Source: Opitutales bacterium (lineage in GTDB: Bacteria; Verrucomicrobiota; Verrucomicrobiia; Opitutales; UBA2987). Taken from it: a stretch of 60,172 nucleotides of DNA. Positions 19,267 to 21,531 of the stretch are shown here, piece by piece. The position numbers and the translations under genes were made by a program. The stretch spans positions 1-60,172 of the forward strand of contig JAJFLV010000021.1 of NCBI GenBank assembly GCA_021772535.1. The letters run 5' to 3'. The notes below the pieces were generated by a model. It saw only the letters and a program-made list of their open reading frames with translations. It was not told the DNA's origin and did no database searches. How positions within the stretch are numbered: position 1 is the first letter of the stretch; the number at the start of each line of letters is the position of its first letter.

Positions 19267-19504
19267 ATTCGTTATTTAGCTACCTGGATATTAGCTATCT
19301 TTCAATAAGTTTAATCGATTTCAGTTTTTTTGGGAACTGAATTGTCATAATTATCCTTGATTCAAAGTGACATTGTGGGCTGCTTTCCGACCGTACCTTC
19401 CTTGTTTTCCAAAAAATAGACCTGACTCCCTAAAGTATTATGAGACAGAGCCGAATTATCTACCCAGTAAGTTCCGCTCTAATTGAAATAAATAAGCAAA
19501 AACG

Positions 19505-19551
19505 GTAAAACTAAAACAGGGTGGGCCCGTTTTACTGGAACCCACCCTGTT
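19505..19551 (-). terminator. Rho-independent terminator
   Basis: Minus strand reads AACAGGGTGGG-ttccagtaaaacggg-CCCACCCTGTT followed by TTAGTTTT (11-bp perfect stem, 19515-19525/19541-19551). Confidence 0.75.
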
Positions 19552-19705
19552 CGTAGCAGTAGTGGTAATAACCACTTTAGGCCGTAGTTACCACCACGCG
19601 TGGTTTTCCCCGGCCTCCCATAATGGGAGGCCGCAGGAAATTTGCTTTCTACCCCCCCGGTAGAAATTTATTTTCCGCACCCCATGCGTAGTAAATTTGT
19701 CCTCT
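19505..19705 (-). ncRNA. Candidate structured small RNA or cis-regulatory leader, family not recognised
   Basis: Four to five consecutive hairpins, the first three each opened by AAAUUU; ends in a GC-rich stem plus U-tract; several stems close with G-U only on the minus strand; TTGACG upstream. Confidence 0.6.
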
Positions 19706-19708
19706 CCT

Positions 19709-19736
19709 AAATTCATTGGAAATTTTTAAACGTCAA
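19709..19736 (-). promoter_or_regulatory. Putative promoter of the candidate RNA
   Basis: TTGACG (19736-19731), 16 bp, GAATTT (19714-19709). The -35 is good and the -10 is weak. Confidence 0.35.
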
Positions 19737-19952
19737 CTTTTTTCCTGATCGATTACTTGATATTGAATGAGTATTAATCTTTATAAACAACATAGGTCTT
19801 ATACCCCATAATGCAACCCATAAATACCTGATTTCAGTTAATAAAGTGTAAATTTATTATTTTATAAGCCGCTATAGAACAAATACATTCGTAATTTTAA
19901 AACTATTGTTACAACATTGTAAAATATTTATGAATTATAAAATTTTTAATAT

Positions 19953-19992
19953 TCATTTCCCCAAAATCGCACCTCTTTTTTTGGGAAAATGA
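19953..19992. terminator. Inverted repeat downstream of glgA, possible terminator
   Basis: tcatttccccaaaa / ttttgggaaaatga, 14-bp arms with one mismatch (a U-G pair on the minus strand). Confidence 0.4.
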
Positions 19993-20064
19993 CGGGTGCT
20001 TGCAATCAACAGTCTTACTATTGGCAAAAGAGGGATAATTGTAAATTTATTTAAAAATCCGCAA

Positions 20065-21531
20065 CTAACCCGCTTGTTTACGCGTCTCAACGGCCCAGCG
20101 ATATATATTTTCATAGGTAGCCGATGGGTTCTTCCAGGAAAAGTCTTTCCTCATTCCATTTAACTGTAATCGTCTATACTCCTTCGGTTGATCTCTATAA
20201 AGGATGGCTGCCCTCTCAATGGCCGATCCAAGATCTTCAGGGGTAGCATCAGCAAACAGCAAGCCGGTGGCATCCCTCTTCCCTTTTCCATAAGGATCGA
20301 TGGTGTCGATTAAACCACCGGTTGAGCGTGCCACTGGCGGCGTGCCGTACCTCATGGCATACATTTGACTAAGACCACAGGGCTCGAACCGGCTTGGCAT
20401 AACAAAGAAATCCGAGCCGCCATAAATCAAATGAGCCAGTTGGTCGCTGAATCCAATTTGCACCCCTACCCTGCCCTTAAAACGCTCCCCCAATTGTTTG
20501 AATCGCTCTTCAAGTTCCTTTTCTCCAGTGCCCAGCAAGGCGATTTGCCCGTCTGTTGTCTCCATTATGGCGGCCACCGCTTCGGCCAGCAAATCCAATC
20601 CCTTCTGTTGGTAGAGACGGGAAACCACACCGAATAGTGGAATCTCGGCCTTAATCTCCAAACCCAACTCTTTTTGTAATTCAGCCTTGCAAAGGCCCTT
20701 GCCCTTGCGATTGGAAATAGAATAGGTGGCCGGCAGCAAAGGATCGCTTTGGGGGTTCCAAACGCTCGTATCGATGCCATTTATTTCTCCAATCAGGTCG
20801 CCCGCCCTGAGTTTCAGTATATGATGCAAACCGTGACCGTTGTCCGGTTTGAGGATTTCACGGGCATATTCGGGACTTACAGTGGTGATCTTGGTGGCAT
20901 TGTAGATTCCCCCCTTTAGAAAGTTCACGTGCCCCATCGCCTCCAGACAATCCGGCCGGTAAACGGAGGCGGGAAGCTGGGCATACTCAATGCTCGAATA
21001 GGGGAAATGTCCCTGATGCTGCAAATTATGGATGGTCAGAATGCTGGCCGCTTTACCTAATGGCTCATAGAAATCATTGGCATTCAAATAAACCGGGACC
21101 AGGGCTGTCGGCCAGTCGTGACAATGAATAACATCGGGAATCCAGCCCAGATAATAGCACAGGTTAAGGGCTGCTCGCGATAGAAAAATGAACCGCCGGT
21201 CATTGTCCTGAGGTCCCCGGCTGGAGTTTCCGTAAACATCGGGGCGGTCGTAAAATTCGTTAAATTCAAGAAAATAGGTCTCCACCTCCGAACCGGGCAA
21301 GCGACTCTCCCAAATCCGGCACTGAAGGTTTTCCCGACCTAGATTAACGGTTAACGGAATATTATAAGGTATCCATTTGCCAATTTTCTTGATACCGGAG
21401 TAGAGAGGGCATACCAGCCTGACTTCATGCCCCATCCCGGCTAGTTCCTTCGATAGCGCTCCAACTACATCGGCCAGCCCCCCCACCTTGATTAGGGGCG
21501 CCACCTCGGAGGCTATCATGAAAATTTTCAT
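20065..21531 (-). CDS. glgA: Glycogen synthase
   Basis: ASEVAPLIKVGGLADV, HCHDW, TIHNLQHQG and PSRFEPCGL motifs. Confidence 0.95.
   Translation of the reverse strand: MKIFMIASEVAPLIKVGGLADVVGALSKELAGMGHEVRLVCPLYSGIKKIGKWIPYNIPLTVNLGRENLQCRIWESRLPGSEVETYFLEFNEFYDRPDVYGNSSRGPQDNDRRFIFLSRAALNLCYYLGWIPDVIHCHDWPTALVPVYLNANDFYEPLGKAASILTIHNLQHQGHFPYSSIEYAQLPASVYRPDCLEAMGHVNFLKGGIYNATKITTVSPEYAREILKPDNGHGLHHILKLRAGDLIGEINGIDTSVWNPQSDPLLPATYSISNRKGKGLCKAELQKELGLEIKAEIPLFGVVSRLYQQKGLDLLAEAVAAIMETTDGQIALLGTGEKELEERFKQLGERFKGRVGVQIGFSDQLAHLIYGGSDFFVMPSRFEPCGLSQMYAMRYGTPPVARSTGGLIDTIDPYGKGKRDATGLLFADATPEDLGSAIERAAILYRDQPKEYRRLQLNGMRKDFSWKNPSATYENIYRWAVETRKQAG

Follow-up and report, generated by a model that had tools for sequence, protein, structure and literature searches.

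Stand-alone bacterial small RNAs (sRNAs) with an intrinsic terminator at their end and a gene beside or behind a metabolic one are the closest known kind to the element described here; they include the DapZ/MicL type, which is associated with the 3' end of a gene and has its own promoter. The element is located on the minus strand at positions 19505-19736 of a stretch of 60,172 nucleotides from an Opitutales bacterium (contig JAJFLV010000021.1 of assembly GCA_021772535.1). This whole stretch is called the window, and all coordinates without a further label are window positions. Like these sRNAs, the element is intergenic, follows a coding gene on the same strand, is non-coding and of narrow taxonomic range, and combines several hairpins with a mostly single-stranded conserved stretch in front of a terminator with U-tail. 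It differs from them by its length of ~300-390 nt, which exceeds that of most, by a host without detected Hfq and ProQ, by a conserved promoter-like site past the stop codon of the upstream gene and not within this gene, and by being known here from sequence alone.

The CsrB and RsmZ RNAs share with the element the multi-hairpin build, the G-rich loops and a thematic link to glycogen genes; CsrA controls the glg genes in Escherichia coli. In contrast to these RNAs, the element has no repeated A(N)GGA loop motif (its loops are GGG, GGGGG, UUA and GGCCUAAA), it has no Rfam match, and CsrA was not found in three of the four genomes carrying the RNA. 6S RNA (RF00013) is also structured, housekeeping-sized (~190 nt) and without open reading frame (ORF). 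However, 6S RNA forms one long hairpin with a central bubble, while the element is a row of separate hairpins.

The element is real, selected, structured in a strand-specific manner, present as a single copy and without coding conservation. By its sequence it looks like a previously undescribed RNA of a known kind, the terminator-ended sRNAs. As an explanation we tentatively prefer a lineage-specific non-coding regulatory RNA gene of ~300-390 nt in one Opitutales family, which would base-pair in trans via the linker before its terminator or via the loop of its second hairpin. Taken as a whole, including this mode of action, we give this explanation slightly less than an even chance.

Structure and strand of the element

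Using RNAfold, five separate hairpins were predicted on the minus strand of 19505-19736, the last being an intrinsic terminator. The helices given here are those of the centroid structure.

19676-19688, minus strand: hairpin P1, 5 bp, loop GGG, within a variable linker
19646-19666, minus strand: hairpin P2, UUUCUACC-GGGGG-GGUAGAAA, 8 bp, loop GGGGG
19605-19640, minus strand: hairpin P3, 16 bp with one bulge, loop UUA
19562-19597, minus strand: hairpin P4, 14 bp with three G-U pairs, 8-nt loop GGCCUAAA
19549-19562, minus strand: linker CUACUGCUACGAAC with core GCUACGAA, between P4 and the terminator
19505-19549, minus strand: intrinsic terminator, hairpin at 19517-19549, then UUUUAGUUUU

The minimum free energy of the minus strand was -95.3 kcal/mol compared to a mean of -65.3 kcal/mol (standard deviation 4.7) for 200 dinucleotide shuffles (z -6.43), none of which folded as stably. 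The plus strand reached -81.3 kcal/mol (z -5.69) and was 14 kcal/mol weaker. On the minus strand, six to nine G-U pairs are formed. The four conserved helices of the window's genome (G000) contain G-U pairs while A-C mismatches are missing from them, and a U-tract follows the last hairpin on the minus strand only. The strand is fixed by the G-U pairs and the U-tract, and the pairing fits an RNA of the minus strand. The original prediction, made from the letters alone, had described exactly such a minus-strand multi-hairpin RNA with its own terminator and with G-U pairs fixing the strand, and its reading of the minus strand was recovered as written. It also correctly placed the element in a GC-rich island within an AT-rich intergenic region of ~800 bp. 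The spacer between glgA and the DUF1538 genes measures 798 bp, with a GC content of 0.49-0.52 across 19500-19700 and of 0.16-0.29 across 19700-19950, upstream of the hairpin block. The linker CUACUGCUACGAAC is unpaired in the centroid of G000, except that GCUA forms four pairs with UAGU past the U-tract, which is impossible in the related genome G001. At position 19536, in the terminator loop, the window carries T, while the contigs of the sequencing runs X1, X2 and X4 and the aligned genomes G001 and G003 carry C; on the RNA strand this is A versus G.

The word CUAC, for which five occurrences had been reported, was indeed found five times in the element (shuffle mean 0.8), and AAAUUU was found four times (shuffle mean 0.3); neither count was reached in any of 2000 dinucleotide shuffles. 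Runs of G were not enriched in the element compared to 2000 such shuffles. The proposed repeated units of AAAUUU and stem-loop did not survive the comparison with relatives: G001 and G003 have just one exact AAAUUU each, and P1, the first of these units, is not conserved in either, was not recovered in the fold of G001 and falls into a stretch that is replaced in a metagenome homologue (X4). In the word AAAUUUC, the letters UUUC form the base of the stems P2 and P3, where they pair with GAAA. BLAST against the own assembly of 3.9 Mb detected a single full-length copy, all other matches being at most 28 nt long (E at least 0.003). By this check, already proposed with the prediction, a repetitive extragenic palindrome (REP), a miniature inverted-repeat transposable element (MITE) or another dispersed repeat was ruled out.

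Homologues and distribution

The RNA was found in four of nine genomes of one Opitutales family, namely G000, G001 and G003 of one genus and G008 of a different genus. All statements on absence refer to the genomes sampled and to exact-word scans. BLAST against 41 genomes, G000 included, detected the element in the two genomes of the same genus, with 78% identity over 158 nt in G001 (E 8e-28) and as two pieces 1.6 kb apart in G003. There, an insertion sequence (IS) with terminal inverted repeats, a 4-bp duplication and a transposase of 456 aa (DDE_Tnp_1_4, E 2.8e-165) is inserted in the P4 loop (G003:C13:241406-242972); G003 thus represents a natural disruption (knock-out) of the RNA. Using a covariance model built on P2-P5 (R1), 151 genomes of the order Opitutales were searched. 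The model recovered G000, G001, both halves of G003 and a new site in G008 with 26.9 bits (E 8e-4 genome-wide). As this site is located next to glgA, ~400 nt downstream on the same strand, a chance match is unlikely. The parts found again in G008 are the terminator, GCUACGAA, the small hairpin of the 5' part and, in the place of P4, a P4-like hairpin, which is an unrelated one of 8 bp. Five weaker model matches in other families (E 0.009-0.09) had no glgA within the fetched loci and were discarded as noise.

The locus was also present in Logan contigs of four DNA sequencing runs, all from one study. A metagenome contig of 1735 nt (record 7 of run X4) carries a fifth, diverged homologue. It aligns to 19512-19670 (19 differences) and to 19766-19852 (12 differences), the homology spanning 341 nt. 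From this span, and from the 365 nt enclosed by two MITE-like units in G008, a unit length of roughly 300-390 nt was deduced. The initially assumed ~200 nt are therefore probably an underestimate, with conservation extending upstream.

Within the family, glgA was detected in eight of the nine genomes, and G002 (81% complete) yielded neither a glgA match nor the RNA. No model match was obtained anywhere in the genome of G004, and the element was not found at the glgA loci of G005, G006 and G007. In G004, a DDE_Tnp_1 transposase ORF of at least 589 aa (contig C28) begins ~100 nt past the glgA stop. The RNA was missing from the rest of the 151-genome order sample (model R1), from 150 further genomes of the class (iterated model R2) and from at least 80 glgA loci of other species (R1 or R2; the closest relatives are not among the loci listed). 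Searching all GTDB species genomes with a P2 pattern returned only G001, G003 and four chance hairpins, and the pattern of GCUACGAA plus terminator returned 11 matches there, only those of G001, G003 and G008 being real. Using the JGI metagenomes, the invariant 20-mer of the linker gave no match and the P2 pattern three, none of them confirmed by the model. For paralogous 3' modules, ten GCTACGAAC sites were found in the genome, and only that of this element is followed by a terminator.

Selection and pattern of change

Comparing G000 and G001, P2-P5 were found 79% and the 5' domain 67% identical. The 168 four-fold sites of glgA showed 39% identity and are saturated, and the spacer after glgA, the variable linker and the DNA past the terminator showed 53-58%, which is the baseline of a gapped aligner. 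An identity of 79% in P2-P5 despite saturated four-fold sites indicates that the element was kept by selection.

In an alignment of four rows (G000, G001 and the two G003 pieces), standard pairs were formed in 95.1% of 142 pair cells compared to 44-59% in slid controls, and four pairs were changed on both sides compared to 0-1 in these controls. Most compensatory changes were found in P3, where three pairs are changed on both sides among G000, G001 and G003 (C-G, U-A and U-G series); in X4, the C-G pair of 19633 and 19611 has become A-U (G>T and C>A, respectively). The one-sided changes of P4 keep the pairing (A-U to G-U; U-G to U-A or C-G), and those of X4 at 19586 and 19588 do so only as minus-strand RNA; in G001, P4 contains a 3x3 internal loop. 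The terminator is kept in G001, G003 and G008. Within the genus, one of its pairs shows compensatory change (C-G, U-A, U-G), and, as read from the aligned sequences, G000 and G008 differ in both partners of several pairs. In X4, the loops of P3, P4 and the 5' hairpin vary freely.

Two parts behave differently. Stem and loop of P2 are invariant in G000, G001 and G003 save for a difference of one G in loop length, with seven of seven pairs without variation and no X4 difference listed. The linker CUACUGCUACGAAC is invariant in the same three genomes, again without a listed X4 difference, and its core GCUACGAA is also present in G008. Such letter-for-letter invariance of P2 and linker points to sequence-specific recognition, and the linker is a candidate recognition or seed site.

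Known RNA families and coding potential

Using the Rfam 15 covariance models, with a score at or above the gathering score of the family as the threshold for membership, no match was obtained in the 60-kb window, in agreement with the original prediction, in which no tRNA, SRP RNA, 6S RNA, tmRNA or riboswitch had been recognised. A permissive search of 19300-20100 gave 21.4 bits versus a cutoff of 60 as best score, and 20.4 versus 49.5 inside the element. At E up to 0.5, no match was obtained in the G001, G003 and G008 loci. The best sub-threshold family inside the element was RF02837 (anti-hemB), which resembles it by two hairpins followed by a U-run and aligns to P3 and P2 on the plus strand. 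With 20.4 bits versus 49.5, E 0.032, the opposite strand and nothing in the homologous loci it was rejected as a chance match to hairpins of a generic kind. ARAGORN found no tRNA or tmRNA in the window, and the true 6S RNA lies on another contig (G000:C146:914-1097, 63.2 bits). A promoter-like site TTGACG-N17-CATTAT precedes the 6S RNA, which suggests that the organism uses ordinary sigma-70 promoters. Literature searches, in which the beginnings of abstracts were available, showed nothing relevant on the element or on regulatory RNAs in Verrucomicrobia.

The claim that no credible ORF exists had overlooked an ORF of 42 codons at 19588-19716 on the minus strand, which has no Pfam match; its frame is not conserved, and the conclusion of a non-coding element stands. 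An ATG and the common end TGGTGGTAA are found in G000 and G003 (41-42 codons), where ~25 nt between two indels are read in different frames. In G001 the ORF lacks an ATG, and its frame, shifted by an insertion of 1 nt, ends six codons too soon; G008 contains no such ORF. An ORF of 15 codons in the 5' domain, with its ATG within 19817-19821, is common to G000 and G003, is interrupted by two stops in G001 and is missing in G008.

Upstream part and promoter candidates

Conservation reaches ~120-190 nt further upstream than 19736, where the element had been taken to start, to 19852 and perhaps to 19923. The following features were found there.

19894-19945, minus strand: promoter-like region "box A", direct repeat TTTACAA-N4-T(A/T)ACAAT at 19905-19923 (7+4+7)
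19836-19852, minus strand: "box B", TTTACAyTTwATTAACy, conserved in G000, G001 and G003
19791-19810, minus strand: small 5' hairpin U(A/G)GG(G)-loop-(C)CCUA, stem in G000, G001, G003, G008 and X4
19767-19783, minus strand: conserved unstructured block UAAAGnUnAAUACnCAU in G000, G001 and G003
19669-19766, minus strand: variable linker, holding TTGACG (19731-19736), the start of the 42-codon ORF and P1

Sequence conservation among G000, G001 and G003 starts at box A, which allows two overlapping sigma-70-type readings, TTTACA-N18-TAAAAT or TTCATA-N18-(TG)T-AACAAT. A promoter scan of the minus strand gave TTTACA/18/TAAAAT at 19923-19894, with the equivalents TTAGCA/18/TACAAT in G001 and TTAACA/18/TACAAT in G003; the counts of promoter-like sites are not above those of shuffles. 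The TTGACG upstream of the element, which had been noticed before, is present at 19731-19736, but it is not conserved in G001 or G003, and its proposed role as a promoter is not supported. A sigma-54 reading of GG...TTGC words was rejected due to wrong spacing. In the metagenome contig X4, homology does not extend upstream of box B, the match ending at 19852. Box B may act at the DNA level, as second promoter or operator, or at the RNA level. Boxes A and B resemble PhoP/PhoB-type tandem repeats and might be Pho boxes; no PstS-type gene was found in G000.

The stem of the 5' hairpin is kept in all five sequences, whereas its loop differs in all of them; the X4 changes at 19797, 19798, 19800 and 19802 all fall within the loop, and one A-U to G-U change was found among its pairs by RNAalifold (columns 94-97/106-109). 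The variable linker is 58% identical between G000 and G001, equal to unrelated flanks, and in X4 95 nt of it (19671-19765) are swapped for 104 other letters. GGA-containing words were found in G000, G001, G003 and G008 in the variable linker only.

Sites resembling box B (TTTACA-N5-TT(A/T)AC) occur eight times in G000, several in ORF-poor DNA, and none of them is a known RNA. Tandem repeats of this kind are located at C5:26696, C131:2815, C211:12443, C241:33848, C199:978 and C82:486, those of C5 comprising three copies with an 11-bp period. Several sites have no ORF of at least 60 aa within 450 nt and no Rfam match. C131 and C211 agree in 13 of 14 positions in a shared stretch ~40-60 nt downstream of the repeats. 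Judged by these motifs, the sites could serve a common regulator as operators, or they could be promoters of additional RNAs that lack annotation.

Gene neighbourhood

The gene upstream of the element is the following.

20065-21531, minus strand: glgA, glycogen/starch synthase of 488 aa (Pfam Glyco_transf_5, E 1.3e-76)

In every genome carrying the RNA (G000, G001, G003 and G008), glgA lies directly upstream on the same strand. Downstream, two DUF1538 genes follow in G000; the first large ORF is DUF1538 in G000 and lies on the opposite strand in G001 and G003. The sequence downstream of the RNA in G008 resembles the gene after glgA in G005 and G007. As the downstream gene and its direction differ among the homologues, a leader or riboswitch of the downstream gene was ruled out. 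The constant place beside glgA suggests a link to carbon storage.

A 7-bp hairpin (CCCAAAA...UUUUGGG) without U-tract is located ~75 nt past the glgA stop at 19960-19990 on the minus strand. Terminator-like hairpins were found between glgA and box A in G001 and, together with a MITE-like unit, between glgA and the RNA in G008. These hairpins would favour a separate promoter for the element.

The G008 homologue is flanked on either side by REP/MITE-like palindromic units of ~97 nt (C1:258209-258305 and C1:258671-258767). The inverted 13-mer arms of this unit, 71 nt apart, occur ~1185 times in the 8.3-Mb genome (580 forward and 605 reverse with at most one mismatch, compared to 1 and 4 for a reversed control). 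In G006, a gene for an RRM-type glycine-rich RNA-binding protein, identified only by eye in the sequence, follows glgA (~1300-1660 of the fetched locus) and occupies the place held by the RNA in the window's genus.

Possible partners and targets

Hfq (PF17209) was not found in any of the nine family genomes, and neither ProQ (PF04352) nor CsrA (PF02599) gave a match in G000, which is 90% complete. CsrA was detected in two of the nine genomes, G001 and G002, and not found in G003 and G008. Being present in G001 and G002 only, CsrA does not track the RNA. A protein with an RRM_1 domain is encoded in G000 at C138:8613-8825. The neatest complement to the linker, at +10 to +19 of a gene on C151 for a repeat-rich, probably secreted protein, was dismissed for having no tie to the locus; going by its sequence, this protein may be RCC1-like. 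Using RNAduplex on whole sequences, long duplexes without meaning were obtained.

Evaluation of the preferred and alternative explanations

According to the regulatory RNA gene that we tentatively prefer, transcription would start on the minus strand from an own promoter downstream of glgA, most likely box A near 19894-19945, and would end at the intrinsic terminator at 19505-19549. The transcript would consist of an AU-rich 5' half with conserved blocks and the small hairpin, the variable linker, and a GC-rich 3' half with P2, P3, P4 and the terminator. Contact surfaces would be provided by P2, whose loop consists of G alone, and by the GCUACGAA stretch ahead of the terminator, most likely for base-pairing with mRNAs in trans without Hfq or ProQ, and the role might be connected to carbon storage.

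Several results weigh against this explanation. The homologues number only four to five, three of them in one genus, and G008 contains neither P2 nor P3. The RNA is dispensable in nature: the IS splits it in G003, no copy was found in G004, and the glgA loci of G005-G007 are without it. The search for homologues and covariation, which had been suggested as a check, yielded structure-keeping homologues and evidence of selection, but no convincing covariation: the score of 0.080, compared to 0.061 in shuffles, was reached by 46 of 500 shuffles with only 3-4 rows. P3 contains mismatches, two A-A in G003 and one U-U in X4 (19629 with 19615), and no variation occurs in P2, in the linker or in most of the terminator, which are hence uninformative on structure. 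The common structure of the 5' domain is weak (-4.9 kcal/mol, RNAalifold). With two overlapping readings of box A plus box B, promoter and 5' end are not fixed, and the promoter scan found no clear promoter in the G008 locus. Seed complements to the invariant linker were 9-12-mers only, which is chance level. The four public sequencing runs containing the locus are all DNA and none is RNA.

A long structured 3' untranslated region (3'-UTR) of the glgA mRNA, acting in cis on transcript ending or stability, perhaps with an sRNA cut out of it and without own promoter, is possible but unlikely. The position directly past glgA on the same strand in two genera would be explained this way, as would the distance of ~550 nt from the glgA stop to the end of the terminator, which is alike in G000, G001 and G008. 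The hairpin past the stop in G000 has no U-tract, and the scan showed no minus-strand terminator before the element. Hairpins moreover shield 3' ends from exonucleases. However, the first ~130 nt past the stop are unconserved, with 53% identity as in unrelated flanks, and conservation begins only at the promoter-like motif. G001 and G008 carry terminator-like hairpins before the element, G008 in addition a MITE-like unit, and glgA is found without the element in G005, G006 and G007. Finally, the exact invariance of P2 and linker exceeds the needs of a stabiliser.

The original prediction had considered a protein sponge with repeated binding units. As a decoy titrating an RNA-binding protein in the manner of CsrB or RsmZ, possibly one that is typical of bacteria lacking Hfq, e.g., the RRM protein mentioned above, the element would make sense of its multi-hairpin build, of the invariant P2 with G-only loop, and of the AAAUUU and CUAC words of G000, which shuffling does not reproduce. 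GGA-containing words are read in the variable linker of all four genomes, the genome encodes an RRM_1 protein while Hfq and ProQ were not found, and the closeness to glgA recalls the Csr system. This explanation is distinctly unlikely nevertheless. The AAAUUU repeats and P1 are not conserved, and the loops GGG, GGGGG, UUA and the 8-mer share no motif. A single hairpin is invariant instead of an array, and G008 lacks P2 and P3. CsrA was not found in G000, G003 and G008, and its presence in G001 and G002 does not match the distribution of the RNA.

An element acting at the DNA level or in decay, i.e., the remains of a mobile element, a target site favoured by ISs or several palindromes bound by proteins, appears very unlikely. 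ISs inside or next to the locus (G003 and G004), the MITE-like units on either side in G008 and the patchy spread over four of nine family genomes fit this idea; the single copy, the same neighbouring gene in two genera and the 79% identity where neutral sites are saturated do not, and the G-U pairs and the U-tract are specific for one strand, unlike DNA palindromes. That the element encodes a small protein is extremely improbable, as the two ORFs shared by G000 and G003 are not maintained in G001 and G008, no Shine-Dalgarno sequence precedes either ATG, and the 42-codon ORF lies inside very stable hairpins.

Meaning for the family and for Verrucomicrobia

With two genera, four to five sequences and an RNA that is dispensable, the family is narrow, and judged by its sequences it is a good candidate rather than a discovery. 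It belongs to a group of organisms in which the common RNA partners were hardly detected: Hfq was found in none of the nine genomes of the family examined, CsrA was mostly not found, and ProQ was checked in G000 only. The regulatory RNA gene could, in its boldest version, be the first carbon-storage riboregulator of Verrucomicrobia, working without Hfq, ProQ and CsrA, in which the G-loop hairpin and GCUACGAA would capture an RRM-type protein or act on mRNAs of glycogen metabolism as an independently arisen analogue of the Csr system. We regard this version as highly doubtful. As an RNA under purifying selection and tied to glgA, the element offers an entry point to RNA-based regulation in Verrucomicrobia.

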